Part shown: piece after piece, positions 3,986-59,400 of the stretch
Numbering within the stretch: position 1 is the stretch's first letter
How the letters are laid out: every line of letters begins with the position of its first letter
From: a virus
DNA length: 64,000 nt
Virus record (IMG/VR): IMGVR_UViG_3300045988_119396
Reading direction: 5' to 3' (one strand)
The notes under the pieces: generated by a model
The model's database searches: none
What the model was told of the DNA's origin: nothing
Seen by the model: only the letters and a program-made list of their open reading frames with translations
Position numbers and translations under genes: made by a program

Positions 3986-4530
3986 TTTGTCACAGTGATT
4001 ATTTGACAATAATGTTTATTTTGTACTCATGATGAGTACCTCCTTTTATTTAAACTTATTTTTCTGAATTATGTAGTACGTATACCTAATCACTGTGGCA
4101 CACCTCCAAGTTAGATTGGTAGGTGGGTAAGATAACGGTATTGCCCATCTACAAAAGAGTTGGCACTTCTCCTACATAAAATTAGAATTAATGTTTCATT
4201 CCAGTCAGCTCTTTTGTAGGTGAACAAAACTTAGTTTGCCTAAACAATTTTCGCAAGTCTGAAAGGATTTGTACTTTCCAAATTGATGGTGTTCTATGGT
4301 TAGTATTTCTCTAGTCTATTTTGTTAATTATTTTAATACTAATTTTAATATCATCTCTTTAACACTTTTTATTTTTATATTATTTTGTTTTTATCTGAAT
4401 GTCAGCCCATTAGGGTTGATATATCAGCGAGTAGACGGTTGACTTTTTGATATATTTTTTACGACCTCCGATTTTATGCTTGTTTTTTAAGCTACTCGTT
4501 GATATATCCATCTTAGTCGGAGGTGTAAGC

Positions 4531-6300: not shown

Positions 6301-6923
6301 TCTCCCAAAACAAGTCTACTACATGTTAAGAGTTTAGAGAATAAATGGTAGACATTTGGTATGTAAGGCAGTAGAAAAATGCTAACACACCACAGCATTT
6401 ACACTAATCAGACGTCCTTGCATACCACGCTCACAGACTTTGGCGCAACGAGGAATGTGGGAGCGGATAGCTGAGTCACAGGTGGTGTTGTGACAGAGAG
6501 CTATGCGTAATTATTTATCTTAGTTGGTAGTCATGTGGTGTATATGTGTAGCACACTCGTCCTTAACACGAGAGAAGTAGGGTTCAACTCTCTACCATGA
6601 CATAGAGGCGAAATGTCTCGAAACAAGCATATCTTGTATGGTGATATACATTGTTATGTATTGATTGGTTATTAATCAATCTCATATAAATACTCCTTTT
6701 TTTTAAATTATTTTTTTGGTTACCGCAGATGTTAAAAGGTGCATTTTACGAGTTCGACTCTCGATGTGGTAATTGGGGTAGAGCATGAATGCCCCGAAGC
6801 ACAATAACGGTAAGTGCGTAGATTTACGTATTTTGCGTGACATTAAAAAGTTAATTCATGAACAGGTTCATTACGACTTACGTGGTTGGTTCATGAATAA
6901 GATTTCCTCCTTTTAAAAAGGTA

Positions 6924-6985
6924 TACGGTGTAGCTCAAATGGTAGAGCAAGGAGGCTGATATGGGTTCGAGTCCCATCACCGTAA
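6924..6985 (+). pseudogene. tRNA fragment (acceptor + D-arm + T-arm; anticodon arm missing)
   Basis: TACGGTG..GTAGCTCAAATGGTAGAGCA..ATGGGTTCGAGTCCCAT..CACCGTA; only 62 nt. Confidence 0.3.
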
Positions 6986-8067: not shown

Positions 8068-8157
8068 GGTAAGTTACTCAAGTTGGTGAAGAGGACAGTT
8101 TGCTAAACTGTTAGGTCTGCGATTGTAGACGCAAGGGTTCGAGTCCCTTACTTACCT
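8068..8157 (+). tRNA. tRNA-Ser (anticodon GCU), type II with long variable arm
   Basis: 7/7 acceptor pairing GGTAAGT/ACTTACC; 3-bp D-stem; anticodon stem ACAGT/ACTGT with loop TTGCTAA; T-arm AAGGG/TTCGAGT/CCCTT. Confidence 0.6.
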
Positions 8158-24120: not shown

Positions 24121-24399
24121 TTAAATATCGAATAACTTAGCTATGATTGTTCCAATTAAGGCAGCGATAATAATAACAATGCTGCATGCCAACAGTGTTA
24201 ATAGCGCTTCAACAATTCCAACCTGTATTGTAACGTATACAAAGAGACAAATATCGACCAATAACACAATAACCATTAGCCCTATCAACGTATTCAAAAC
24301 TATATCTAATACAATGTCCAACAAACTACTCAACCTTTCTAATATATTCAGCCACCACCTTTGCATTGATTTCTTCAATACGTTTTGTGGCAGTATCAA
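24121..24399 (-). CDS. small membrane protein
   Basis: Track ORF; 2-3 TM. Confidence 0.45.
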   Translation of the reverse strand: MILPQNVLKKSMQRWWLNILERLSSLLDIVLDIVLNTLIGLMVIVLLVDICLFVYVTIQVGIVEALLTLLACSIVIIIAALIGTIIAKLFDI

Positions 24400-25046
24400 A
24401 GTAATGTTTATCTAATTCAATACCAATAAAGTTTCTATCAAGTTCTAATGCTGCAACTCCTGTTGAGCCACTACCCATGAAACAATCGAGAACTATATCG
24501 TGTGGATTGGACAATTTTTCAATTATCCATTTCATTGCGTCCAATGGTTTCTGTGTGGGATGACTACCGAATTTCTTTTCACTCTTAGGTGTTACATTAA
24601 CTCTTACTTCTGGACGTTCGTACTTCTCATCAATTCTATTAAAAGTCCATTTTTTCTTTCTTTTTAACAGCCCAAATTGCAAACTCATAATCTACAACAA
24701 ATCTTCTATCTCGATTACGAGGCATAGGATTATTTTTAATCATTCGTATAATGTCTTTTGACACACAACCGTTTTCTTCTAGTGCATTAGAAATCTCACC
24801 TAGATTTCTCCACGCATTAAATACTACAATGTTTCCACCATTGCGTACTTTATTTGTTGCTTGTCCTATCCATGAGGTTAAATCGAATTCTCTGTCCCAA
24901 TTTCCAAAATCAACCCCTTGCCGATTAGCACTTTTCATGGTTGAAAAATTATTACTTTGTGAAATATTATATGGTGGGTCAGTCAACAACAAATCAACAC
25001 TACCATCTTGAACTTCGTTTAATTTATCTAGGCAATCACCTTGCAA
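24326..25046 (-). pseudogene. beta-class N4/N6 DNA methyltransferase split by a -1/+1 frameshift in an A-rich run (~24660-24690)
   Basis: N-part has LLLTDPPYN (motif IV), C-part has LDCFMGSGSTGVAA (motif I) and PTQKP; ORFs 24639..25046 and 24326..24688 overlap at AAAAAGAAAGAAAAAA. Confidence 0.6.
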
Positions 25047-26623: not shown

Positions 26624-27141
26624 ATTTCCACCTCTTTAACTTCAAAAACAACAATATTTCCATCATCAATGGTATGAACATGAATGTCATAGTAAACTTC
26701 AAGCCACCACAATTCCGTCCCACCCATAATGGAACTCACATCATTTAATCTTTTTTTTAATACTTCACCCTTTTTGCGAGCCTCATAGGTTTTGCTAACA
26801 ATGGTTTCAAGCATTTCAAATACAAATTCGTTAGACTTTGCACGTGCCCATGCGTCTTCTGCAGTTGTTACATCAATGGCACAATCTAACTCACACTCAT
26901 CATGTTTTTTGGTAGGCTTACCATATTCAACGCTTAAATATTTTGTACCACGTGGATATGTGAGGTTGGAAATTATCACTGTATAACCTAAGTATTCTAA
27001 GATTTCAACGATTCGATTTACATACTTATCTTCTACAGTTTTGTCTAAATAATATAAACCAATTCCAGAGTTACTATAAATTGCGTCATCAATCTCAGTC
27101 AATAATGCTAATGGAATATTATCTGTGTTAACTTTATTCAT
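26620..27141 (-). CDS. hypothetical protein, paralog 2
   Basis: DNIPL..L.E; LE.LGY; TELWWLE.YY.IHVH..DDG..VVFE.K conserved with 27142..27660. Confidence 0.55.
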   Translation of the reverse strand: MNKVNTDNIPLALLTEIDDAIYSNSGIGLYYLDKTVEDKYVNRIVEILEYLGYTVIISNLTYPRGTKYLSVEYGKPTKKHDECELDCAIDVTTAEDAWARAKSNEFVFEMLETIVSKTYEARKKGEVLKKRLNDVSSIMGGTELWWLEVYYDIHVHTIDDGNIVVFEVKEVEI

Positions 27142-27660
27142 CTAATCTACCTCACCATCTTTTAACTCAAAAATAACCGTATCTCCGCCATCAACAGCAT
27201 GTGCATAAATATTGTGATAATGTTCCAAATACCATAATTCAGTTTCATGCAAGATATTTGATACATCACTTACATGCTCTTTTAGCGTATAGCCTTTTTT
27301 CTTCATACTTTTAGTTCTTCCAATAATAAGTAGCAAAAGTATTCTCTTTTTCTTTCGGTTTTCAGCGGTGTTATTTGCGTCCTCGGCTGTAGGTATCCAA
27401 ACAGCACATTCCAAATTGGCATCACCATCTGAATTTTGGGGTTTGCCAAAAACAATACCCAGCTTTGTCATATCTGTATCGGGGTTACTACCAAGATTTT
27501 TAATCTTATAGCCTAAAGTTTCCAAAGCCGCCATAACTTTAACCAAATACTGATTTGGTATGTTGACTTCTGTATTAAACACCCCAATTTCAGCCACGTT
27601 ATTGATTGAACTACTTACCTCTGCCAATACCCTTAACGGAATGTTGTCCATGTTAACCAT
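27142..27660 (-). CDS. hypothetical protein, paralog 3
   Basis: Same conserved blocks. Confidence 0.55.
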   Translation of the reverse strand: MVNMDNIPLRVLAEVSSSINNVAEIGVFNTEVNIPNQYLVKVMAALETLGYKIKNLGSNPDTDMTKLGIVFGKPQNSDGDANLECAVWIPTAEDANNTAENRKKKRILLLLIIGRTKSMKKKGYTLKEHVSDVSNILHETELWYLEHYHNIYAHAVDGGDTVIFELKDGEVD

Positions 27661-28009
27661 GCTTATAATATCCTTCCTCTACTAACACTTTTTCTATTTT
27701 ATCTAAGTATTTACTTACGATAGCCATTGCACCGCTAAGCACTTCGATATGGCTAACTGGAATAAACCCATCTAGTTCGTACATGTCACCAACCTTGTCA
27801 AGAACAATATTTTCGCTCTTGTATTCGATATATATTCTATCGAGTTTTTCTCCGTTAAAGTCACAACCCTCATCATAAAACAATGATGTATCAAACTCTT
27901 CGCCATAAAAATCCATGGGATATACATATACTTCATCGTTATATTTTTTTTCTACTTCTTCAACCATATCGGCGAGTATATCTTGAACTTTCCAAGATAA
28001 ATCATTCAT
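27653..28009 (-). CDS. hypothetical protein
   Basis: Track ORF. Confidence 0.5.
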   Translation of the reverse strand: MNDLSWKVQDILADMVEEVEKKYNDEVYVYPMDFYGEEFDTSLFYDEGCDFNGEKLDRIYIEYKSENIVLDKVGDMYELDGFIPVSHIEVLSGAMAIVSKYLDKIEKVLVEEGYYKHG

Positions 28010-28075
28010 GAGTTACCCCTCCTTTTCATCAATATAATTTGCCATACTCCTTTCTTGCATAGTATTATTAATACG

Positions 28076-28420
28076 CTATCCCATAATATATTGTTTTTCA
28101 GTAATTACTTGTTCTTGCCAATTATTACTATGGTTAATTAAGCTGATATTTTTAGTTGATGTATAACTTTTATCACTATTGCTTACATACTCACCAAAAA
28201 TATCTCTTAGCCTTGTACCCGCCCCTTTAGCAGTAAATCCACTAATATAGCCTTTCTTGTTGCTATTCTTAATTTTGGCATAATCATTTAGCCAAAATCC
28301 TCTAGCGTATTTAGTATTTTTAGAATTTCTTTTACTTGTTATATTAGGTGTCTTACGACCCTTACGTGCCGTAGCCTCATGTAAGGAACGCTTTTTCTTT
28401 CTAAATTGTTTAAACATCAT
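28076..28420 (-). CDS. Lys/Arg-rich protein; possibly frameshifted C-terminal remnant of the IscB-like gene
   Basis: Frame is open back to 28475; contains WLNDYAKI resembling RuvC-III N-D-x-A-x-x-I. Confidence 0.35.
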   Translation of the reverse strand: MMFKQFRKKKRSLHEATARKGRKTPNITSKRNSKNTKYARGFWLNDYAKIKNSNKKGYISGFTAKGAGTRLRDIFGEYVSNSDKSYTSTKNISLINHSNNWQEQVITEKQYIMG

Positions 28421-28457
28421 AATGCTAGTTGGTTTTGCTTTGATTTTTCTAATCCCA

Positions 28458-29387
28458 CTAATTATTATAGTGGGACTTAGTTAATTCTAAGTCAGCTCGC
28501 TGTAATGTTGTCCATGCTCCATACTGAAATTTAGCTTGAGGGAAAGCTAAAAATAGTCTTCTTCTTAGAATGTTCATGAAAGTCGCACCTTTATAAGACT
28601 TGTTGACTTTCTTTTTATCCTTACACCATTTAGCTAAAATTCCAGTTTGGTGATTTTTAGTTGTGTGGCAATTAGAACATACTGTAATTAGATTATTTAC
28701 AGTGTTAGTTCCACCTAAAGAACGGTAGATAATATGGTGGATTTTGAGTTTACCACCTTTTTTCTTACATACTTGACAAGTATAGTTATCTCTAGCTAAA
28801 ACAAATTGTTTAACAGTTTGATAGCCGTATAAATCACCTTGCTGATAACCCTCACCATTTATTTCTGGATTTTTCATTTTTTGAATATCAAACTTACCTA
28901 CTTCGATATGTAAATCAGCTTTAGGTAAGACTGATAATAAACGCTTTATCCAGTTGATATTATGGTTAACTTTACTTAATACCGAAGGCGGTAGCCAGTT
29001 ATCTTTTTTCTTAGCTATACGATTTAAAAATTTAGCTTTACGATAACGTGTTTTACGGTTACGTCTACTTCTACGATATATTCTTCTAGTATCTATTAGC
29101 TTTTTGACATCTTGTCTTAACTCTACTTCGCCTTGAAATAAGACTTTATCTTGGCTTGTAACAGCTAGTCCAATATGTCTTTGACCGCTATCAATACCAA
29201 TACTTATATCCTGTTTATAACCAGTTGAACCATATAAGAGCTGAATGGTAAAAGGTTCTTTTTTAAGTACCTTAGCTTTACCATCTCTTAACAAAATTCT
29301 AGCTTTTCTAGGCTTACATGGCATTAACGCTTTACCATGTTTGTTAATCACAAAAACTCGGTTTTGCATAATTTGTACTCCTTTCAT
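28458..29387 (-). CDS. iscB: IscB-like OMEGA nuclease (PLMP + RuvC-I + bridge helix + RuvC-II + HNH), ORF ends inside RuvC-III
   Basis: KALMPCKPRKARILL (PLMP), IGIDSGQRHIGLAV, RRIYRRSRRNRKTRYRK, LHIEVGKFD, CQVC..HHIIYRSLGGTNTVNNLITVCSNCH, then KSHYNN-stop. Confidence 0.7.
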   Translation of the reverse strand: MKGVQIMQNRVFVINKHGKALMPCKPRKARILLRDGKAKVLKKEPFTIQLLYGSTGYKQDISIGIDSGQRHIGLAVTSQDKVLFQGEVELRQDVKKLIDTRRIYRRSRRNRKTRYRKAKFLNRIAKKKDNWLPPSVLSKVNHNINWIKRLLSVLPKADLHIEVGKFDIQKMKNPEINGEGYQQGDLYGYQTVKQFVLARDNYTCQVCKKKGGKLKIHHIIYRSLGGTNTVNNLITVCSNCHTTKNHQTGILAKWCKDKKKVNKSYKGATFMNILRRRLFLAFPQAKFQYGAWTTLQRADLELTKSHYNN

Positions 29388-29637
29388 TTTTTATAAGGTA
29401 CTAACGACCTTATCACGTATTTATCAGAGTTAATAAATACATGTAGTTACCCTTCGACAATGTTATTTCAGCTTATAAACAAGGTTGACTAGCACATTAA
29501 CCTTATGCTTGTTTACAGAGCCTCCATAGTGCTAGAAACTAGGGTATCATTTCTAGGTATGTTCACTGAAATAACGTAGTTCTCTAAGAACTTAGTCTAG
29601 ACAACAAAATTATTAAGTTACCTACTTTAGTAGGTGG
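29388..29637 (-). ncRNA. candidate IscB omega-RNA region (5' of iscB, same strand)
   Basis: 250-nt ORF-free stretch with several hairpins (CCTAC/GTAGG, CTAGAAA/TTTCTAG, TCTAGA). Confidence 0.3.
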
Positions 29638-30135
29638 TTACTGTTGACCCTTCTTAGTCATTTCTTCCAAAGCGTCTTGCCACTTATATTCCACATCTTC
29701 CTTGATAATAGGGTTAGTTTTCTTCGTCAGACCAACAACCTTAACCCTAAAGTCATGAACACGAGGAACTACAATCTCAACAGGAATACCATATTGCTTA
29801 GCAAACATCTTAAATCTTAATTGTGCTGCTGGGTCAATATTGTATGTTGAGTTAAACCCTGTCTTGACGTCATAAACATGCAGCAAGTTACCATCTTCAT
29901 CTCTTATCACAACATCTGGTGTGTAATTAGCACTTCTCAAACGCAGACCATTGTGTAATTCCACCATAGGTTGTATTGTAAAAGACTCGTGTACGGTAGC
30001 ATTTAAATCTCTACCATAAATAAATCGCTCATAAAACTTAGCTTCTTTTTCAGAGTCAAATTTCAGACCATTAAATTCAACTTTCTTACCAAAGTAAGTT
30101 GTTCTACCTCTATTAATTCTAGTTTTGCACCTCAC
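29638..30135 (-). CDS. DUF1064-family protein (PD-(D/E)XK-like)
   Basis: FDSEKEAKFY...QP...TPDVV..DEDG..HVYDVKTG matches DUF1064 pattern. Confidence 0.6.
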   Translation of the reverse strand: MRCKTRINRGRTTYFGKKVEFNGLKFDSEKEAKFYERFIYGRDLNATVHESFTIQPMVELHNGLRLRSANYTPDVVIRDEDGNLLHVYDVKTGFNSTYNIDPAAQLRFKMFAKQYGIPVEIVVPRVHDFRVKVVGLTKKTNPIIKEDVEYKWQDALEEMTKKGQQ

Positions 30136-30697
30136 TTATGCGATTTTGTTAAGAGCTTGTTTATTCTCTGAACCCTTAACTTAACTATTACATTATATCA
30201 TATATTAATATTAAATCAAGAATTAAACGCAAAAAAACCTCGCAGCAGAAAGCTACGAGGTCAAAAAGGTTTACAGTGTGTTATAATGTATTGTGGCGAA
30301 AGTTATAAAGACGGTGGCTGACTTATTAGAAAGTGTGGTGTTGCCTATGCAATGCGAAACTAACGAAAGGAAAGCCATTTGTGTCTGTCTATCAAGCCTT
30401 GATGTTGATGTTAACATTCGGTGTGTTTCTGTTAGCATTACTGACATACATCAGCAAAAAGTAAGCAACTTTGTTGTGACGATAGTAGATACAGTAAAAC
30501 CGTCCGATTGTAACTTTGGCGAGTTCGTGGACGGTTGCTGTATGTGACTATCTAAGTAACTATGCCACCGTCTTTTAAACGGTCGCTATAAGTCATGCTT
30601 CGGCATGGCTTTTTCTATTTATAGAATATCACAAAATGCAATAAATTACCATATTTGATATTCCACAACGTTTCACAGCATTCCATTTTTGTGTGAT

Positions 30698-32080
30698 TTA
30701 TGCTTCATATGAAATGTCTTCTGGAGTTTTGTCTAATCGAATTGATTTAATAGTAGGAAATCTAAGTGAAATGTTATTGTCGTTTTGATTGTTTGTTTCT
30801 TCAAAGTATTGGACATCTACAACTTTACCGATAATCTTGTTAGGGTTAGCCCAATATGTGTTACGTTCTTCCAATGTAAAGCCAGAACCTACCTTAACAT
30901 CATTGCCTTTATAGTCAATAATTACACCGCCTAGTGTGCCAGATAGTTCGCCTGTGCCTTCAAACACATCTTTGACTAAGACATCAGCATTGAAAAACTC
31001 TTTAACTTTTAAAATATCACTTGTACGTTTGGTTTGATATAAACCGTCTGAAAGATTAATCATTAAGCCTTCCCAGCCTAATGGTTCTACGTATTCTTCT
31101 TGTAGGGATAGGATAACATTTGGGTGATATGTGTCTTCATAGATATTTTCGACAATACGTAGATGTTGAGCTAATGGGTCAATTTCTGTAGATTTTACTG
31201 ATTTGAGTGGGTAGATAGAGTAGAAAGCATTAGCTAAATCTTCTTTTCGTTTCCAGAATGGGTCTTTAGATTTTCCAGTGGTAAATTCTTTGTAAGGCAA
31301 ACAGTCAAATGCGTTGAATAAAACTGAACTTTTATCAGCACTATCACTTCTCAAAATACTTGTCGTTAATCTAAACAAGTCCTTAGTTTCTAACCCATCA
31401 GTGTTGTATACAAGCAACTCACCATCTAGCACATAATCTTTTCCACCAAAGCCACGTTTCACCAATTCTTCTGCTTCATGTTCTTGAATATCCAAACCGT
31501 TAATCACTAAGCCTTTTCTTGTGTAGAATGTAGCCTTACCGTTCTTTACAATACAGATAGACCTATGCCCATCTAACTTTTGTGTAACGATAATTTCGCT
31601 ACCTTCTAGCCTATTCAAATACTTGTGATAGGGATAAGCTAATTGGCAGCCAAACTCTTCAATAAACCCCTTGCCTAATACCTTATTGATTGTTTTAGCT
31701 GTAATACCAACCTTTAGCTTTTTGGTAAAGACATCTTTTAGGAATTGCTTTGTTTCTTCATCTTCAAACTGGTTAATATAGGTTTGCAACATATACACCG
31801 TATCCAATTTACCAGTGTTATGTTTCTTAACCCAATCTAACAGATTTTCGTAATTGTATTTAAAACTTGTATTTAACACCATAAATTCATTATCTTTAAC
31901 GTTGGCATTAATCTTTTTAGTCGAAATACCAGTGGTAATAAAGTCGTCATAGACAAACTTCAATGTCTTAGTAAACAACTCATTATCCTTGTATTTCTTA
32001 ATAATATCCTCCTTAGCTTTCTTGGAAGATACAGATTTGATTTCTTTAAAAATATCTTTTAATTCAATGATATTATTCAT
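30698..32080 (-). CDS. ATP-dependent DNA ligase
   Basis: Motif I KLDGHR, motif III DGELLVY, motif IV EGLMIN, motif V LKVK. Confidence 0.8.
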   Translation of the reverse strand: MNNIIELKDIFKEIKSVSSKKAKEDIIKKYKDNELFTKTLKFVYDDFITTGISTKKINANVKDNEFMVLNTSFKYNYENLLDWVKKHNTGKLDTVYMLQTYINQFEDEETKQFLKDVFTKKLKVGITAKTINKVLGKGFIEEFGCQLAYPYHKYLNRLEGSEIIVTQKLDGHRSICIVKNGKATFYTRKGLVINGLDIQEHEAEELVKRGFGGKDYVLDGELLVYNTDGLETKDLFRLTTSILRSDSADKSSVLFNAFDCLPYKEFTTGKSKDPFWKRKEDLANAFYSIYPLKSVKSTEIDPLAQHLRIVENIYEDTYHPNVILSLQEEYVEPLGWEGLMINLSDGLYQTKRTSDILKVKEFFNADVLVKDVFEGTGELSGTLGGVIIDYKGNDVKVGSGFTLEERNTYWANPNKIIGKVVDVQYFEETNNQNDNNISLRFPTIKSIRLDKTPEDISYEA

Positions 32081-40815: not shown

Positions 40816-42597
40816 TTAATATTTATATGGTGCTGCGAAGAAAATAGCTTTCATTTTGCTACTTCCTCCATCATCAATGATTGGCTTAATCGCACCATCT
40901 AACATCTTTGTTAAACCTTCTCCTGTGATAGTATACGGTATTCTTACCAAGAAGATATCATTGTCATCACAGTATTGGTTTTTAATTTTATCGTAATTGA
41001 TACGCTCTTCAAATTTCTTATCTCCACCCCAGTATTCTACTGATTTGAAATGTTGTTCACCATCATATTCAATAGCCATGTTAGCAGATGGAATATAGAA
41101 ATCGAATGGCAGTGGTTCTGCATTACCAATACAATCGTCAAAAGTCTTTTGTGGCTCATAATCAATATTATGTTTAATCAAATAATCCTCGATTAGAGCC
41201 TCACCACGTGATTTACCACGTCTAGCACAACGTGGACACTGTGTCCCACCATTAATAAAATTGCTAGGACTCGTTTCCCATTCATAGCCACAAGTATTGT
41301 GCTTCATGAGAATAGATGTAATACTATTCACATACTCGCCTAGTGCAGTATATTCATCACCATACAGTGCTTCTACCTCGTCTTTATATTGTTCTGTTGT
41401 CTTTCTAAACTTTCCAAAGCAATGTGGGCAACCAGTTCCTCCTAACATGTGATTAGGAACCATCTCAAATTCTTTCCCACATACGTTATGCCTAAACAAT
41501 ATTTTATCGTGAGAAGTTTTGTATTCTCCTAAAAGGGTATACTCATCACCACGTGCTTTCTCTAATCTCTCTTTGAACTTCTCAGTTGTTATATCCTTTC
41601 CACCACCATGACATTCGGGACATATTCCACCACTTGTCAAAAAGTGATTTGGTTTTCTCTTGTAAACATTCCCACATACATTGTGCCTATATTTAATTGG
41701 GGCTCTTGCACCTTTATATTTTTCTAAAAATGTGTATTCGTCACCAACTAAATCGTACACTTCTTTGAGAAACTCCTCATTTGTCTTCATACGACTTTTA
41801 CTTCGACACTGTGGGCAACGTGAACCTCTTTGGAATGAGCGTACTTGCGTCTTCCATTCATATCCACACTTATTGTGGCGAACTAGCATAGGTGTTTTAA
41901 CGTTGACATAAGGTTCTAGGAAAGTATACTCATCGCCCACCATGTCATATACTTCTTGCAACCATTCTTCATTAGTCTTTCTAGTTCTTTTACCACCATT
42001 TTGCTTGCTTTTGTCAATAGTACAATTAGGGCAACCTCTCCATTCGCCGATACGGTCTGACCTAATTTCAGTTATGCTACCACAAGGCTTATGTTCAATT
42101 TTCAACTTTGCCCTATCGCCTTCAATCTTTTCTAAGACAATGTAGGATTTGTCAAATGCCTCTTCCAGTTTTTTCTGATATACTTCAATCTCCTTATAAT
42201 TTCCAGGTTTCTTGCAGTATGGGCATTTATATTTTCTCTTTTTGCTCTTAAAATTTCGTGGAGTTATCTTAAATTTGTTCCCACATACATTGTGCAAGCA
42301 AGTTAATTCCGTATTGTTGTCTACATACTCATCTAAGAATGTAAACTCATCACCTTTAAGTTCCTTAACTTTTGCCAACCATTTTTCATTGCTCAGCTTA
42401 TTACCAGAATTACATTTAGGACAACGGACACCATGTAGAAAATGATGTGGGGTCACTTTCCACTCGTAACCACATTTATTGTGTCTACACGCAATTTTTG
42501 CACTACTTTTTTGATAAGGTTCTAAAAAGGTGTATTCATCACCTGTAAGTCCCTTATATTCTTTCTCCCATTCTTCTTGAGTCTTTCGGTTAACCAA
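40816..42597 (-). CDS. six tandem zinc-ribbon repeats + C-terminal Vsr/DUF559-like endonuclease domain
   Basis: 6x ~65-aa repeat GDEYTFLEPY....RHNxCGxxW...P..F..G..CP.C; C-term LPFDFYIP..MAIEYDGEQH...ERINYDKIK.......LVRIPY. Confidence 0.6.
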   Translation of the reverse strand: MVNRKTQEEWEKEYKGLTGDEYTFLEPYQKSSAKIACRHNKCGYEWKVTPHHFLHGVRCPKCNSGNKLSNEKWLAKVKELKGDEFTFLDEYVDNNTELTCLHNVCGNKFKITPRNFKSKKRKYKCPYCKKPGNYKEIEVYQKKLEEAFDKSYIVLEKIEGDRAKLKIEHKPCGSITEIRSDRIGEWRGCPNCTIDKSKQNGGKRTRKTNEEWLQEVYDMVGDEYTFLEPYVNVKTPMLVRHNKCGYEWKTQVRSFQRGSRCPQCRSKSRMKTNEEFLKEVYDLVGDEYTFLEKYKGARAPIKYRHNVCGNVYKRKPNHFLTSGGICPECHGGGKDITTEKFKERLEKARGDEYTLLGEYKTSHDKILFRHNVCGKEFEMVPNHMLGGTGCPHCFGKFRKTTEQYKDEVEALYGDEYTALGEYVNSITSILMKHNTCGYEWETSPSNFINGGTQCPRCARRGKSRGEALIEDYLIKHNIDYEPQKTFDDCIGNAEPLPFDFYIPSANMAIEYDGEQHFKSVEYWGGDKKFEERINYDKIKNQYCDDNDIFLVRIPYTITGEGLTKMLDGAIKPIIDDGGSSKMKAIFFAAPYKY

Positions 42598-50428: not shown

Positions 50429-53400
50429 TTATAATGATTTAGATTGGACTTGTTGCTTAGCAATCTGTGGTAAGTTCTTAATAGCTTCTTCAAATCCTGT
50501 TGGGTCTGTTACATTAGGGAACTCTAATGTTTGATGTTGAATAACCATAGACAATGTTTGTGTTGGTGCATTAGGTATTCTTGGTGAAAGGTTAGGGTCT
50601 AATTTAAGAGCGTCCCTTAATTGTTGACCGAACATTTCACTGATTTCCTTACCAACTACTTTGAATTGGTCTGTGAACCCTTGTAAGATTTCTTGATAAC
50701 CTGTTAAGCTACCAACAGCCTTAGAGTCACCATATTTACCTAAGATGTCCTTGTTTCTATTCACATAATCAGTATATTGTTGGATAATGTTTTCAAGCTG
50801 TCCAGCGTTGTATTCTGGAATATCATCTAAAATACCAACACCATAAGCGTCTTGTAATTGTTGTAGTCGTGTCTTGACTTCATCAATATTCAATTCGCCT
50901 GTCTTTGCACCGTCAATTACTTTTTCAACAGCGTCAACAAATTGTGACTTCATCTGTTTCTTGTAATCTTCCATGTCTACTTTAGCTTGTGTTAAGTTTT
51001 CTCGTGCTGTATCAACATCATCTTGGTTGGCCATGTAAGTCCAATTAAACTTACCGTCTTCACCTTGTGTTAATACCTTAGTATCACGTTTACCTAACGT
51101 ATTATCCAAAGCCTGTTGTGCATTTAACACATCTATTTGTTTATCTACGTAATCAGCCTGTATCTTAGACATTCTTGATTGAGCGTCCAAAGCCTCGATA
51201 CGTTTCTTCACAACTTCATTTTCTAACTCAATAGACTTTTGTCTTAATTGTTCTAGTTTAAGTTGCTTAGATACACCATCAATCCAGATGTCGTCTTCAA
51301 ATTTAGTTCTATCAGCAGTACGTCCACCATTGATAGATTTTTCAAATTCCTTAGATGTAGCCTCCATTGTGTTTTCAAATTGTGAACGTGAAGCCTCCAA
51401 TAAATCAGCAATAGATTGATTTACTTTTGAGTCCATTTCATCAATTTGTTTTTGTAATGTGTTCCATTCAAATGAGTTTACATCATATCCAGATTGTTGT
51501 TCTCTTAGCTTATTAGCTAATGCAATATAAGTGTTGTATTGCTTTTCAATAGTCTTGTATTGTTGCTCTAACAACTTAGCTTGAGTTGCTGGTTGCATTT
51601 GTAAGGTCTTAGCTAATGTCACTAAGTTGCTTACTGTATCTGTAACCTTTTGATATTTATCTAATTGGTCTTGGATAAGTGTATTTTCATAGTCAAATCT
51701 TTCCTTGATAATATCTTTAATATTGTTTTGAGCGTCAATGTTATCTTTTTCATATTGTGCAATACTTTCTTTTAATGTTTGACGTTGTTCTGTCGTTAAA
51801 TCTTCTGTCTTGAGTTTCTTTTGCATATCATCAATAGCTTGCAAATTACTATTAATAATTTGTTGATATAACTCACGTTGCATATCCATTTGTTGAACGA
51901 CAAACTTCTGATTAATTCTTGAACGTTGCTCATCATTTGCAGCAGCCTTAAGTTGCTTATTGTATTCTTCACGCAATTTAACTAACTCATCTTGGTATTT
52001 AACCATTGCTTTGGTATATTCAACGCTACGTTGACCTCCACCAATAGTAATATCATTTAAGTTAGCTTGACCTGTTGGTGTTGCGTAAGTAGCAAACTGT
52101 GTATTGATTTCACCTACATACCCTTTAGCATAATCTTTTGCAAGGTTAAGCATTTGAGCATATTTGTTTTGTTCAACTCTTAATTGAGCTGCAGCAACAT
52201 CATTTTGTCTATCAACATTTTTCTTTGCGAAAGCGTCCATAGCACTATCTAATTGCTTTTCTAAATCAATACGTTGTTGTATTTGTCTTGATAAAGCAGA
52301 TTGTTGTTCAAAATCAGTAACAGATAGATTAGAACTCAATAAATCGTCAAATGTCGTACCACTTAACAATCCATCTTGCAACTGTTGTACATTAGATTTC
52401 AAACGGTCAATATTGTTATTAATCGTATCGGTAAACTTAGTCAAGTTTCCTGTGTATTGGTCGATTTCTGCTTGTTTCATATTGTTTTGTAATTCCAATA
52501 CGCTATCAGCAGTATCTAAGATGGTTTGTCTTAAATCATTTAAGCTATCTTCAATTTTTTCTGCCTGTTCCTTCTTTGAGAATGTCATAGCAGATAGTTT
52601 ATTGAATTGACCTATTAATTTTTCCAAACCAGCTGATTGTTCATTAATTTCCTTTGCACTGAAACCTAACTTCATAGCGTAATCTTTTTCACTCAATGAG
52701 TCGATTACTCTATCTGCCAAATTCTTGGAGTATTCAACTGAACGTTTCACCATTTCCAATTCACGTTGAGCCTTTTCAATAGCTTGTGACTCAATTTCTT
52801 CTTGGTAATCTTGGATATTCTTATTTTGTTGCCAAATATCTGTATTTAATTCATCTATCTTCTTAGTTACATCAGATAAGTTTTGATATACATTTTGGTA
52901 GGTACTTAACAACTCATCAACCTTACTTGCTTGGTCGCCCTTGAAATTCTTAGCGATATCCAAGTTGGTGATTTGGTTACCATTAGTACGGAAACCATAT
53001 CCACGTAACTTACCCATGACATCATTTAATTGGTTTTGGTATGCCCCACGCATTTCTTCTTGATATGCTAATTGTTTTCTATCTACATCAATTTTTTGAC
53101 GTGCGATATTAATCAATTTGTTCATATCTTCATCAGCTTGCGTTACAGCATTCTCCAATTTAGACGCTTGTTCATCTAGTGGTAAACCTTTGTAGAGTTC
53201 CTTACCCATGTATCTCCAGTATTCTTCATTTACCTTTGTATCATCAGCCTCAGAATAATCTCTAACTCCCATATTAGCAGCAGTACCATTTATAACACTT
53301 ACTACATCTGGGTTATCAGTAGCTACAGACATTGAACGGAATGCGTTAGGACTTACAGCATAAGAAGCGTCAACTCCACGTCCCAATATGCCAAGTGAAC

Positions 53401-56400
53401 CATTAATGGCAACAGAAGGTGCTTTCTTTGTAACAGTAACCGTTTCAGATTTCGTAACACTAATTGATACACTCTTTTCTGATGGAATACTATTAACAGC
53501 ATTAGCTACATTTGTCGCTGCGGCTGCAGCTGCCTCTGCACCAGTAACACTAATAACCGTATCGTGGTTTGGTGGAATTGAGTCAATCGCACTCTTAACG
53601 GTATCAATTACAGAACTTGCTTGGTCGTCAGCAGTGATGGTTACTTCTGCTTTAAGTCCTTGTACCGAACTTTGAATGCTAGATATTGTTGAGGCTGTAT
53701 CATCTTTGGCTGTAATGCTAATTTGTGCCTTAACACCAGTGATTTTACTCTTGATACCCGAAATTGTATCACCAGTCTTATCTTCTGCAGTAATAGGTAT
53801 CTTAGCTTTGATATTTTGAACCTTAGATTTAATCTTGCTTATACCATCACCAGTTTTGTCTTCGGCAGTAACAGGTATCTTTATCTTTTGCCCCTTACCT
53901 TTGGACTTAATCTTATCCATCGTACCTTTAGTTTTATCTTCACCTTTGATAGGGACTTTGATATTTGCTTTTTTGCCTTTAGACTTAATTTTGCTAAGCG
54001 TATCCTTAGTTTTATCCTCGCCTTTAATAGGTACTTTGATATTAGACTTTTTACCCTTAGACTTAATTTTATTAAGTGTATCTTTGGTTTTGTCTTCACC
54101 CTTGATAGGGACTTTGATAGCCTTTCGTTTACTGTTAGATTTAGCCTTGCTTGGTGAAGACTTGGAACTAGCTTTACTACTCCTTTTCTTAGCTGCTTGT
54201 GCCTCAATCTTAGCCTCTTCATTTAATTTCTTAGCTAAATTACGCTTTTCTTTAGCAGATAACTTACCATCATTGTTCTTGTCGGCTGCTTTGTACTTCT
54301 TGGCAAGCCTTGCCATTTCTTTCTGTCTAGCTTGGAGATTACGCTTTTCTTTAGCTGTTAGTCTACCACCTTTTGAGTCGCTAAGTTTACGCTTTTTGCC
54401 ATTTTCATCTGAGTAATCTTTCTTCTTGTTAGATTTATTTGACTTATTGGATTTGCTAGATTTTGTATCTTTTCTGTCTTCTTTTTTCTTGTTCTTTTTA
54501 TTCTCAGATTGTCTACCCTTGTTTTCAGCGTCAGCTTTCTTCTTACCTAATTCTTCATATTTCTTTTGTTCCGCTTTACTTAGCTTACCGTCACCGTTCT
54601 TATCAGCTTTATTGAAGTTCTTAACAGCTTTTTGATAATTGTCATAGGCTGTCCTATCGTCCTTCTTTAATTGTGCTAACTGTTTCTTAGTCAGGGATGA
54701 ATATTGCCCATTCTTCATGGCTTTGAGTGCCTTATTGGCAGCTTGCATACTCTTAGTATTCTTTAATTTATCAGCTTCCACTGTTGGAATTATGCCTGGT
54801 GCTGTAATTTTGTCGTTTTTCTTACCGTTCTTACTACCCTTGCCGCCTTTGCCAGACTTACTTTTTAACAGTTTTTCAAGTTGCTTATTACTCTTGATAC
54901 TATCTACATAATCTTCTGCGTCCCCAGAGTCATCACCAAATGCTTGGCTATGTGCGATATCTTCTTGCACTTTCTTCTTAGCTTGTTTCAGGGTCATACC
55001 ATTCTTCATATTAGCTTGAATGGATTTTGCAACAGATTGCTGGTCTTTCTTCCCTTTAAACTTGCCATTGCTACCACGCCTAATCATAGCGTCATTAGCT
55101 TTGGTTACAGCTCTATCTTGCTGTGTATTACCATTTGCGTCAAAATATCCGTCAGCATTTGTCGCAGCTACCAATGCGTCTTTTTGGTTTTTCGATAAAC
55201 TTTGGTCGTTTTGAATTGCGTCAACAGTGCCTTTTTTACCTTGTGTAGCAATCATTTGCCCCAAAGCACTGATGGCATTTTTGTTAAGGTTAAAGTTATT
55301 CTTAGAACTCAGCTTGCCGTTTCTCCCACCATGCTGTCTAAGATGACTTAATGCACCCATTGCTTGAAGTTGTTGTTGTCCACTAGCAGAACCTTCACCC
55401 AATGAAGTGATTAATCCAGGCAAGTCGGACGCACCAAACACATTCTCTAATTGACCTAATTGTTTTAGGTTCATACTACCATCAGTATTAGTTTTAAAAC
55501 CTAAATCACGTAGTCTGTCACCAGCAGAACCCTTCTTGAAGCCATAAACACCATTACGCTTACCATAGCCTTTGTTAAGCTCGGAGTTAATAGTAGCAAT
55601 AGCGTTAGTATCAACCATTCCATCTTCGGTAGTTATACCACGCAAGATTTGGTTGTCAGGGTTCCTCTTAGCCCATGCGTCAATTTGCTTTTGTTGTTGT
55701 ATCATGGCTTTAGCCCATCTATCACCATATTGCACACGATACTTAGCTCCAACACCTAATGCGTTCATACCAACATTACCGAATGTCGACATTTCACGAA
55801 TGTAATCAGCGTTAGAACCACTAAATCCATTTACAATTTTATCTTGAACCTTACCAGTAATACCAGTGCCAGTTAAAATATCACGTAGTTTTTGTTTTCT
55901 ATCATCAACCAACTTGCCACTTTGTGTTTGTAGGTTATTGATAGCCTCTCTTTGTTCGGCTGTAATTTCACCGTTTTGAAGCTTGATATTAGATAATACT
56001 CCACCTTGTTTAGACAAGTATTCTTGTTGTTGTCTTGTAAGGTCTTTGCCTTCACTCAAACGCTTATTGATGTCATCTAACGTGTTCTTTTGTTGTACCC
56101 AGTAACGAAGATTACGCCCCTCAGCAACAGTAGCTTGTTGTCCAAAATCAACACCCAGACTCTTATAATCGTCTTTTTCAAAAGCCCCGCTATTGATAAC
56201 TTTTGCTAAAGAACTCAAACGACTGGCGGTAGCTTTATTAGCTGCGTCAACAGCTTGTATCATCTTTCTACCATCTGACGAGTCCCATATCTTTTCAGCG
56301 TCCTCACCAAATCTAAATGACCTATCTTGTAAACGCTTATTCTCTAAATTGGCATTAATTTTCTTTTGTACACGCTTGTACGCATAATCATTCTTATCTC

Positions 56401-59400
56401 TTCTACTTTGATACTCTCTTTCTTTTTCTATATCAGCGTCATAATCATAATAACCCTCACCATGTCTTCTAAATAGCTTATCCCAAAAAGTTCTTTTTTC
56501 GGTTGATTTCCATAAATCATTTAGTTTACTTTGGCTTGTTATTTTTTCTGCTTCACGAACTTGAGTATTGTACTGATTTGCACCTTCGATAGCGTCATGA
56601 CGTTCTTTTATTTTAAGCTGGTCTTGGAATTGCTGTTGTGCGTCTTTCATAACTTCAACATTATTTACTTTTACACGAACCTTTAATCCCAAGTCTTTAG
56701 CTTTCTTATTAAAGTCCTTTTTAAAACTAGCAAAATCATCATCAGATAACTTATTGTTCAAGCCAGCATTAGTAGCATTTGTTGCACTATCATTCAACGC
56801 TTTGTTTAGGTCGCTAACTGTTTTCATTGCACTTGCAGCTTTACCATTGTACACAGAGTTCTTATCTAACTTTTTACTCATTGCGTCAATGGTCTTAACA
56901 TTTTTATCCAACGAAGCGTTAAAATCATCACTTGCGGCTTTAGCTGGATTTACAGCACGCATAAATTTCCCGATTGGGTCTAACCCCATCATTTGAGCAA
57001 TAGCTACGCTTAACGCACCAACGTCTAAGATAATACCGCCAATACCAAGTAAATCTCCAGCCATACTTGTAACGGTAGCAATCTTACCCATTCCACTAGC
57101 AATTTTAGAACCAGTTTTTGATAGTGTGCGGGCTTTTCGATTAGTAGTTTCAACTTCCTTACCCATTTCTTTGGTTGCGTCTGTTGCTTTGCCAACGTTT
57201 TGGGTTTCGTTCTCAAGTGCTTCTGCAGCTTTCTTACTTGCCTTAGACGTCTTATCTTTAGCCTCGGCAGATTTTTCTTCTTGTTTTACAGCCTCTTTTT
57301 TACTTTCAGTCTGTTTCTTAGTAGCTTTTTGTTCTTTGCCGCCATTTTCTTGTGCTTCTTTGGATTCATAAAACTTTCTCATAGCTTTAGCAAGCTCATC
57401 TTCTGGTGTTTCATCAGCCTTTGGTCTGCTTCTACCGTGTAGCTCATCAACTTTGTCGTCCCAATCATCTAACCAGTCATTTTTAGCTTGCCCACTTAAA
57501 AGATTAGTTAATTTTTCCCACTTAGCAGCAGTGACATCTCTAGCAGCGTCAGCTAAACCAGATAATGCTTTATGAAGTCCACTAATACCAGCAATAGCAC
57601 CAGTGAACATTGCAGCACCTCTAAATATCTTATTATTAGCTAAGCTATCAAGCACATTAACAACAGAAGTACCAGTATCAACAATCTTATTTAAGCCTTC
57701 ACGTCCACCAACAACATCATTTAACATTTGTGTCCATGAGTTCTTTAATGTAGCTAGATGAAATTGAACAGATTGTTGTTGTTTCTCAAATTCTTGGAAA
57801 GCAGAACCATGGTCTTTATCAACAAGATTTACTTGTCCTTGTGACTCACGCATAGCTTTTTGTACTGTCTTCCAGTTTTCTAACATACCAGTAAATTGAT
57901 TAGAATGTTCCTTACCAGCAGCGTATAAAGCAGCGTCAGATTTTTGTTGTTTACTTAACTTGCCCCATACCTTAGATAAATCATTCATGATTTGGTATGT
58001 AGACTTCATCTTCCCATCAGATGTCTTTAAATCGACACCTAATCCATGGAAGAAATCAGAACGTCTCTTATCCGTTGCTGTAACACCAGAACTCATCTTA
58101 GAGAAGTTGAGCGAGATTGCCTTGATAGAACGTCCAATAACATCACCACCAGCACGAGTAGCTTCTTGAGCACCAGTAATCATACCAGTCAACTGACTAA
58201 ATGTAGTACCTGTACTTGCCACAACAGAACTAGCTTTAGAATACGCTTGACCCAAATCTTCCATTTCAATAGCGTTCTTGTTAGAAACTTGGTTCATACT
58301 ATTGATAATATCTTTAGATTTAAGTCCTTCTTTTCTAAATGAGTTCAATGGAACAGCCATGTACTTAACCATATCATTAACGTCTACGTTACCAACGAAA
58401 GAACCCATAACAGAGTCTTTAGCCAAACTAATAGATTGTTTTAATGATTTACCAGTCGTAATCCATTGTTCAACAGCGTTAGCATATTCTGGTGCTGTCT
58501 TACCTACCGCACTGGCATTCTTGTAAATTGATTTAGTAAATGCGTCTATATCTTTTTGTGGTGCATTGGCGACCTTAGTAACACGAGTAATAGCAGCGTC
58601 AACTTCACTTAATGCAGAAACAGCACTAGCAACAGCATAAGCACCTTGTTGTGCCATGTTGTAAACGTCCATTGTCGCATTGAACCCAATACGAGTTTTA
58701 CGTTGTTTTCTTGACTGTATTCTGGTTGTACCCAATTCTTCCGACAAGGCATTAACTCTACGGTCATGAGCGTCACTATTTAAACCATTATCACGTATTT
58801 GTTTACGGATTAAGGCTTCTTTTTCACGTTCATCAGCTAACTGCCTACGTGTAGTACGCTTAGCAGCCGTATCAGTAACCCTAGCCAATTCTTTTTCGAG
58901 AGATATTTGACGTTTGATACTACCTTCTAATGATTGGTACGCTGCCTCTCTAGCACGTACCTTGGCAGTAATAGTACCGTCTGCTCTAGCTGATTGAATT
59001 TCAGAACTATTACCGTTTTGGCGATGTTTCATTTGTTCAACAAGGTCTGGGTTGTATTTATCAACCTTTTCAGCTAACTCATTAAACTCATCTTGCTTGT
59101 GTCTGATTTCACGCTCTAAAGCAGCTTTTTTATCTTCCTCACGAGCTGTTTGTTGTTTTTCTTTTTCAAGTTGGTCTAACCTAACTCTTTCTTGTTTAAG
59201 TTTAACCAAACGTTCGCCAGATTTAACCAATTCTTTTTCAGCACTTGATTGTTCTTTAAGCAACTGCGTTTGAGCTTCTAATTGAGCTTTTTGTATAGCA
59301 TTATTTTCTGTAACAAGTTTTTGAGCTGCACCTATTTTTGAATATTCTTCGGTTTGAGCCCTCATAGTAGCATACTTTTCTTTTAACGCAGCTAAAGCCC

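Follow-up and report, generated by a model that had tools for sequence, protein, structure and literature searches.

The stretch analysed here, called the window below, comprises 64,000 nt of viral DNA from the IMG/VR record IMGVR_UViG_3300045988_119396. From 29648 to 28041, its minus strand carries a 1.6-kb IscB-omegaRNA element in which the omega RNA is followed by the gene of an IscB-type OMEGA nuclease. The gene is interrupted within RuvC-III by an 11-nt deletion. Very probably, this is a recently pseudogenised, non-autonomous OMEGA element of the ISC type whose omega RNA has stayed intact and whose relatives would home and then decay. The features of the locus, from the upstream gene to the distal end, are as follows.

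29638..30135, minus strand: DUF1064 gene, Holliday-junction-resolvase-like (PF06356, phrog_190); its last two codons and stop come from the element, as judged by junction comparison
29649..29664, minus strand: guide-equivalent flank, 16 nt, GAAATGACTAAGAAGG, directly 5' of the omega RNA scaffold in the DUF1064 3' end; position according to Meers et al. (10.1101/2023.03.14.532601)
29443..29648, minus strand: omega RNA scaffold, Rfam HEARO RF02033, 115.9 bits (gathering score 83), E = 1e-24, model positions 1-211 of 211
29378..29384, minus strand: Shine-Dalgarno sequence AAAGGAG of iscB, as read from the sequence; ATG 29369 follows 8 nt after it
28458..29369, minus strand: 5' part of iscB, 303 codons and a TAG stop, from PLMP through RuvC-III up to KSH-Y-N
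28463..28464, minus strand: junction of the 11-nt deletion, from the DNA alignment with four intact phage copies
28453..28475, minus strand: perfect hairpin TCCCACTA-TAATAAT-TAGTGGGA, 8-bp stem, 7-nt loop, −14.6 kcal/mol, enclosing the stop codon
28076..28462, minus strand: 3' part of iscB in the +1 frame, 128 codons (ISGIRK...YIMG*), colinear with residues 312-434 of intact homologs
28041..28075, minus strand: distal end of the element, CGTATTAATAATACTATGCAAGAAAGGAGTATGGC, without a CTAAAGT-loop hairpin

A first-pass annotation, made from the letters alone, had assigned a 309-aa open reading frame (ORF; 29387..28458, minus strand), which is followed by one of 114 aa (28420..28076), to an IscB-type OMEGA nuclease in a phage, and searches with IscB, RRXRR and HNH profiles gave strong matches to all. 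Pfam RRXRR is matched from end to end (profile positions 1-174 of 174, E = 1.2e-64), and HNH (E = 2.6e-12) and HNH_5 (E = 8.7e-9) are matched at residues 204-247, the HNH domain being inserted in RuvC. The NCBIfam equivalog guided_IscB reaches 371.8 bits (cutoff 175) and is covered over profile positions 1-308 of 314, and the closest solved structures are IscBs (TbaIscB, OgeuIscB and others, E = 1e-35 to 1e-40). Homologs number in the thousands; the closest, P0001 and P0002, have 434 aa and are 94% identical. The Pfam matches to RRXRR and HNH also confirm the architecture that had been recognised earlier, namely PLMP, RuvC-I (IGIDSG), an arginine-rich bridge helix, RuvC-II (HIEVG) and HNH, in this order. 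The ORF does end in KSHYNN*, with the stop right behind the RuvC-III histidine, but its start was misplaced: the ATG at 29387 sits just 5' of the Shine-Dalgarno sequence, and all aligned homologs as well as the gene callers start at ATG 29369 (MQNRV...). The true product therefore has 303 and not 309 residues.

The nature of the break became clear from the DNA alignment with four related phage copies. The window alone has a single 11-nt gap, in which GACGCTGTAGC is missing between TATAAT and AATTAGTGG. This deletion takes out the codons Asp-Ala-Val-Ala of KSHYNDAVAISG and shifts the frame by +1, so that translation gives KSHYNN* in one frame of the window and IISGIRK... in the other. At the same site, P0001 and P0002 read KSHYNDAVAISGIRK (...LTKSHYNDAVAISGIRK... 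in the protein alignment), and other intact copies read AATGAYGCNGTNGCNATTAGTGG. The deleted Asp aligns with D343 of OgeuIscB, one of the RuvC catalytic residues D61, E193, H340 and D343 of that enzyme (PMC9640706). The His-x-x-Asp pair of RuvC-III (H340 and D343 in OgeuIscB) is thus incomplete in the window; the His is kept (KSH), and the Asp codon lies inside the deletion. The gene had indeed been described as broken within RuvC-III, either by a frameshift or by a small insertion. The frameshift stands, whereas an insertion is ruled out by the 11-nt gap.

The rest of the protein is still encoded. The 3' part of iscB comprises the remainder of RuvC, the WED domain and the region that interacts with the target-adjacent motif (TAM), and its 128 codons lie in the +1 frame, overlapping the first reading frame by about 20 nt. 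The 114-aa ORF is the ATG-initiated subset of this part, and there is no Shine-Dalgarno sequence before its ATG at 28420. The earlier suggestion that this basic ORF continues the same gene holds, as it aligns with the IscB C terminus. The motif LNDYAKI within it, which had been taken for the missing RuvC-III motif, turned out to be something else: intact homologs carry both NDAVAI and, about 60 residues later, LNDYVKI, and LNDYAKI equals this second motif, which belongs to the C-terminal domain.

The exact 303-aa product is called on 6 contigs. Compared with the window, L005 (run ERR528296) is 100% identical over 20.9 kb, L006 (run SRR10479806) is 99.5% identical, and L007 (run ERR15813988) is 99.9% and then 96% identical. 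The 1608-nt element is the same in these three contigs, and their flanks differ. Since an identical broken element is found in contigs from independent runs, the deletion is no assembly artefact. The carriers of the broken allele are near-clonal; the differences of L006 are clustered in two recombination patches, with a background divergence of about 0.07%, and for this reason the complete lack of element differences between the window and L006 was discarded as a sign of selection. For the ratio of nonsynonymous to synonymous substitution rates (dN/dS), comparison of the window with intact copies gives 0.055-0.07 in the N-terminal and about 0.19 in the C-terminal part; among intact copies, the values are 0.07-0.09 and 0.15-0.23, respectively. 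As the two sets agree, essentially all divergence accrued under purifying selection, and the deletion is recent.

The upstream ORF-free region had been pointed out as the place of the omega RNA, and a covariance-model search located a full-length HEARO match there, with the RNA beginning at 29648. HEARO is the IscB omega RNA of the literature, including Meers et al. (10.1101/2023.03.14.532601). On copies beside intact IscB genes the model scores 113-123 bits, and the window score is comparable, which argues that its omega RNA is not degraded. Conservation runs on past two further hairpins to the Shine-Dalgarno sequence in all copies; the conserved hairpins reach about 29388, and the omega RNA therefore probably extends to about this position. 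This fits the remark that RF02033 is without the 3' elements of the omega RNA (Meers et al., 10.1101/2023.03.14.532601). At its other end, the omega RNA reaches into the upstream DUF1064 gene and covers its stop and final two codons. In the 64-kb window, there are one IscB and, by an Rfam scan, one HEARO, and there is no second good match to the guide-equivalent flank.

The omega RNA varies in one detail among the copies. A hairpin of about 13 nt (cttgtagtggtaaactacaag) near its 5' end, corresponding to window 29590-29600, is absent in the copies at the DUF1064 site (window, L001) and in L034/L066; L008 and the chromosomal copies (L009, L012 and L013 were compared) keep it, and the HEARO of copies without it still scores 113-116 bits. 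Furthermore, the same seven nucleotides, AAGAAGG, precede the omega RNA end at two independent insertion sites of the phage-type element, where GACTAAGAAGG and AGAAGAAGGG, respectively, stand directly before GTCAAC (L034 11200-11222 and window 29649-29655). The 64-kb window has just 16 occurrences of AAGAAGG; the sharing may reflect retargeting related to the guide seed, or chance.

Both ends of the element were placed by comparison of copies. All copies diverge right 5' of GTCAACAGTAACC, which is window 29648, and this boundary at the omega RNA end is sharp in several unrelated flanks. At the distal end, homology to L008, a 1674-nt contig with the same element in another flank, stops at 28041, and homology to element-free phages resumes at 28039-28026. 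The omega RNA end carries the hairpin CCTACTAAAGTAGG, and a matching CTAAAGT-loop hairpin is found downstream of L009, L012, L013 and the mini-element of L065 described below. A Y1 TnpA (PF01797) is not among the precomputed Pfam matches of the 30 genes in L005 (equal to window 18458-39369), and none is recorded within ±10 kb; tnpA is missing nearby for about 98% of iscB genes (Meers et al., 10.1101/2023.03.14.532601).

The proposed comparison with IscB loci in related phages showed the same site in both states. In L001-L004, phages with about 93% identity, this site is occupied by an intact IscB of 434 aa, and both junctions agree with those of the window. The site is free of the element in four IMG/VR phages of 21-129 kb (L014-L017) and in a metagenome contig (L070). 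In its place, L014, L017 and L070 have a small ORF of about 150 nt, and L015 and L016 have a short, different deletion joint. In L070, the sequence is GAAATGACTAAGAAGG and then TTGATT, which matches the guide-equivalent flank at all positions (16/16), whereas L014, L015, L016 and L017 differ from this flank in the last 1-3 nt. It was considered whether every element-free allele had escaped by becoming resistant to the guide; this held for these four, and the perfect match in L070 contradicts it as a general rule.

The same element is also found in other flanks and genomes (L008, L034 with L066, L065, L068 and the Ligilactobacillus agilis chromosome in L009-L011), and more distant copies, with 80-86% identity, are present in the Ligilactobacillus agilis chromosome and other contigs. 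L016, empty at the DUF1064 site, has an intact copy elsewhere in its genome (L034 with L066). One 180-kb phage holds an intact copy (L065), a 3'-truncated copy (L067) and a mini-element that lacks IscB. In this mini-element (L065 36-360), the omega RNA is joined directly to the distal end (..AAGAGTATGGTG..) and to a CTAAAGT-loop hairpin, both ends being kept; possibly, it is a derivative similar to palindrome-associated transposable elements (PATEs) or miniature inverted-repeat transposable elements (MITEs). P0019 is frameshifted near its C terminus. Decay is thus recurrent, as seen in the frameshift of P0019, the truncation in L067 and the solo omega RNA in L065. In L068, one and the same gene start (GGGAAGGAGTGAAGAAATATG..TTGGTA.CAAAT.GA...) is found in diverged copies on either side of the element (2650-2709 and 4400-4450), as if the cassette brought along a new 5' end for the interrupted gene.

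IscB-omegaRNA OMEGA systems belong to IS200/IS605-type (ISC) elements and were reportedly described by Altae-Tran in 2021. The element of the window is a member of the known IscB/HEARO family and lacks two features of active members, the RuvC-III Asp and a continuous ORF. Measured against the reference systems OgeuIscB (PDB 7XHT/7UTN) and GstIscB (Meers et al., 10.1101/2023.03.14.532601; Kato et al., PMC9640706), it has the same domain order (PLMP, RuvC-I, bridge helix, RuvC-II, HNH, RuvC-III and a C-terminal WED/TAM-interacting part), a HEARO-type omega RNA directly upstream on the same strand, a guide taken from the flank (here assigned by position), no tnpA nearby, and the orientation of the upstream gene. 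It differs from them in that the RuvC-III Asp is deleted, the ORF is split and the element is borne by a phage; it is also without the distal subterminal hairpin, replaces about 150 nt of the element-free allele, and has the phage type of omega RNA, which is without the one small 5' hairpin of L008 and the chromosomal copies.

A second likeness is to the free-standing homing endonuclease genes of large phages, of the T4 Seg/Mob type, which spread by "intronless homing" (PMC13565253). Here as there, a nuclease cassette lies between two conserved genes, close relatives are polymorphic for its presence at the same site, flanking DNA is replaced, and broken and truncated copies are consistent with a cycle of invasion, degeneration and loss. 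With IscB, however, target recognition would be RNA guided and not protein based. The empty allele of a homing cassette should carry a recognisable target; L070 carries one with 16 of 16 positions, and its cleavage is predicted. A literature search found no published report of IscB homing between phages; a 2026 review treats OMEGA systems as composite homing endonucleases.

How such homing could work follows from the model of Meers et al. (10.1101/2023.03.14.532601), in which the omega RNA borders on one end of the transposon, the flank outside this end serves as guide, and IscB cuts the element-free joint, whereupon recombination restores the element. In intact relatives, the omega RNA would be transcribed with or from the upstream gene, and its 5' end would carry about 16 nt of flank as the guide. 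The IscB-omegaRNA complex would then cut guide-matching DNA next to a TAM, that is, alleles without the element, and recombination with element-bearing genomes would copy the element in. Genomes of the L070 type would be cut by intact relatives at the end of the DUF1064 gene and converted, the small ORF being replaced. A conversion that replaces the small ORF fits the observed site structure; a scarless IS200/IS605 insertion does not. In the lineage of the window, the deletion removed the RuvC-III Asp and shifted the frame, cutting the RuvC fold short, and the WED/TAM-interacting C terminus is no longer translated with the rest of IscB. With the RuvC Asp gone and the TAM-interacting part out of frame, the nuclease should be dead.

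We put forward, as a tentative and more specific scenario, that the IscB-omegaRNA cassettes of these Lactobacillaceae phages of about 127 kb have lost the distal hairpin, no longer transpose by TnpA and spread between co-infecting phages as RNA-guided homing elements, with the 3' end of DUF1064 as the guide and the small ORF replaced by gene conversion. The window could then represent a "dead drive" stage, whose omega RNA may be served in trans.

Several observations weigh against a recently pseudogenised element with homing relatives. No distal CTAAAGT-loop hairpin lies in the 400 nt downstream of the copies in the window, L001, L008, L066, L065 and L068, and therefore, simple IS200/IS605 transposition does not explain the arrival of the element. 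The insertion is not scarless, as the element takes the place of about 150 nt in the element-free allele (the small ORF), and the distal flanks of different copies yield no consistent TAM motif. The broken allele is about as frequent as the closest intact one (6 versus 7 contigs); it has no obvious cost to its carriers, and there could be a reason for keeping it. The loss of function, finally, is deduced from the missing catalytic Asp and the frameshift, and the fully intact omega RNA leaves room for its use in trans.

This last point leads to the strongest of the rival explanations, which we nevertheless regard as improbable: the protein gene is dead, its omega RNA is used in trans by a full-length IscB encoded by another copy in the phage, by a co-infecting phage or by the host chromosome, and the locus still drives. 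Candidate full-length partners exist, as related phages hold intact copies at other loci (L066, L065, L068) and Ligilactobacillus chromosomes encode IscBs that are about 80% identical. The omega RNA of the window scores as well as those beside intact genes, L065 has an omega RNA on its own in the mini-element, and L070 offers a perfect target of the guide-equivalent flank. On the other hand, the 64-kb window has a single HEARO and a single IscB, the deletion is recent enough for the omega RNA to be intact even without selection, and cross-use of omega RNAs is hypothetical.

A functional split gene is less likely still. It could act as a RuvC-dead, HNH-only RNA-guided nickase or DNA binder, comparable to TldR, or as a two-piece IscB made from the 303-aa and 114-aa products. 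In its favour, the HNH, RuvC-I, RuvC-II and PLMP motifs are undamaged, the C-terminal frame has stayed open from ATG 28420 onwards, and the allele persists in several samples. Yet its carriers are near-clonal, with an element that is 100% identical and flank differences confined to recombination patches, and so give no sign of long-term maintenance; the second ORF has no Shine-Dalgarno sequence, the break lies inside the RuvC fold and detaches the TAM-interacting domain, and the closest relatives are all full length. The TldRs, nuclease-dead and TnpB-derived RNA-guided repressors (bioRxiv 10.1101/2023.11.30.569447), are alike in that an OMEGA-family protein without its last RuvC catalytic residue stands beside a kept guide RNA. 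They are, however, old, conserved families that are full length, in frame and under selection, whereas in the window the residue was lost recently, through a deletion that also shifts the frame, and the lineage is near-clonal. An HNH-only or nickase family, which had been raised from the letters, is likewise contradicted by the 94%-identical relatives, which are complete 434-aa IscBs, and by dN/dS values without a period of relaxed or altered selection.

The hairpin at the stop codon might suggest programmed recoding, by +1 frameshifting or bypassing at AAU-AAU-UAG, to give a full-length protein that lacks only D-A-V-A. The stop does lie in a stable hairpin (−14.6 kcal/mol), and the two frames overlap by some 20 nt. 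To our knowledge, however, the site has no +1 slippery motif, and re-pairing from AAU to AUU would be poor. The product would still be without the catalytic Asp, and intact relatives need no recoding. The perfect hairpin noted earlier is real, but it is not an unusual structure: the window contains 22 perfect 8-bp hairpins, compared with 11.8 ± 4.3 in shuffled sequences, and the one at the stop codon is not statistically exceptional among them. Its arms are the conserved S-H-Y and I-S-G codons, and restoring the 11 nt leaves the same arms around an 18-nt loop, which the deletion shortened to 7 nt. We read the hairpin as a by-product of the deletion and not as a signal for insertion or for some other function; possibly, it made slippage across the loop easier. 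Recoding of the stop by a candidate suppressor tRNA was also rejected; its anticodon TTA reads UAA and not UAG, and frame-0 read-through meets further stops. Recoding is thus hardly credible, and the same applies to an assembly or sequencing error in a phage with an intact gene: one window alone could not exclude an indel, but 11 nt are missing outside any homopolymer and the identical allele recurs in independent public assemblies with differing flanks, which makes resequencing unneeded.

The element lies between the DUF1064 gene and a 118-aa gene in the replication module, and its surroundings are syntenic with related phage contigs (primase-like, PD-(D/E)XK nuclease, DNA polymerase III alpha, ligase, DUF1064, IscB). 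PHROG matches in the window include endolysin, tail protein, DNA polymerase, ligase and HNH endonuclease. The syntenic IMG/VR viral contigs measure 126-129 kb, and the window belongs to an uncultured phage of roughly 127 kb. Its host is probably a member of the Lactobacillaceae, since close IscB homologs occur in Ligilactobacillus and Limosilactobacillus and a salivarius-1 RNA motif is present (RF03030, 19012-19065, minus strand; 50.6 bits, barely above the gathering score of 50), the latter being a weak hint to Ligilactobacillus. A megablast of 27000-31000 against cultured phages and a GTDB genome scan with the phage polymerase gave no match, and the DNA polymerase is at most 38% identical to that of any cultured phage.

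Some further features of the window may be recorded. A full-length ROOL RNA (RF03087, 7016-7603, plus strand; 245.5 bits against a gathering score of 99.1) sits among tRNA genes (Rfam tRNAs at 6924-6985 and 8068-8157). The would-be UAA suppressor, a tRNA with anticodon TTA called by ARAGORN at 6530-6602 (plus strand), has no match to the Rfam tRNA model at the gathering score, and the ORFs of the window look normal under the standard code. The intergenic region between ligase and DUF1064 contains a match to the Listeria small RNA rli28 (30272-30451, plus strand; 66.8 bits, gathering score 45), which runs antisense to its neighbouring genes and is kept in L001 and the element-free L016; terminator-like and promoter-like sites on the minus strand (30262-30192) adjoin it. 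An N6/N4 DNA methyltransferase gene (24326-25046, minus strand) is split into ORFs of 135 and 120 aa by an A6 run at about 24655, where L006 has A5 and a single 239-aa ORF; this second frameshifted gene of the phage could reflect phase variation or a homopolymer sequencing error. The minus strand also encodes an ORF of 3203 aa (50429-60040) and a 593-aa HNH endonuclease (40816-42597; phrog_559, E = 3e-180), which may be another homing-type nuclease.

Taken alone, the element of the window adds little, being an unremarkable copy, broken not long ago, of an RNA-guided nuclease that is already well characterised, and IscB-like genes are already present in deposited phage genomes, where they are mostly annotated as "HNH endonuclease." The comparative value is modest: one phage family displays intact, frameshifted, truncated and solo-omega-RNA states, occupied and empty alleles, and an exact guide match. 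P0001 and P0002, with 434 aa, are compact intact IscBs with a defined omega RNA and are open to direct characterisation. In this family, RNA-guided homing appears to have taken place in nature and then to have given way to decay, and the family offers a ready natural system in which OMEGA nucleases may be tested as RNA-guided homing endonucleases between phages, together with the cycle of invasion and decay.

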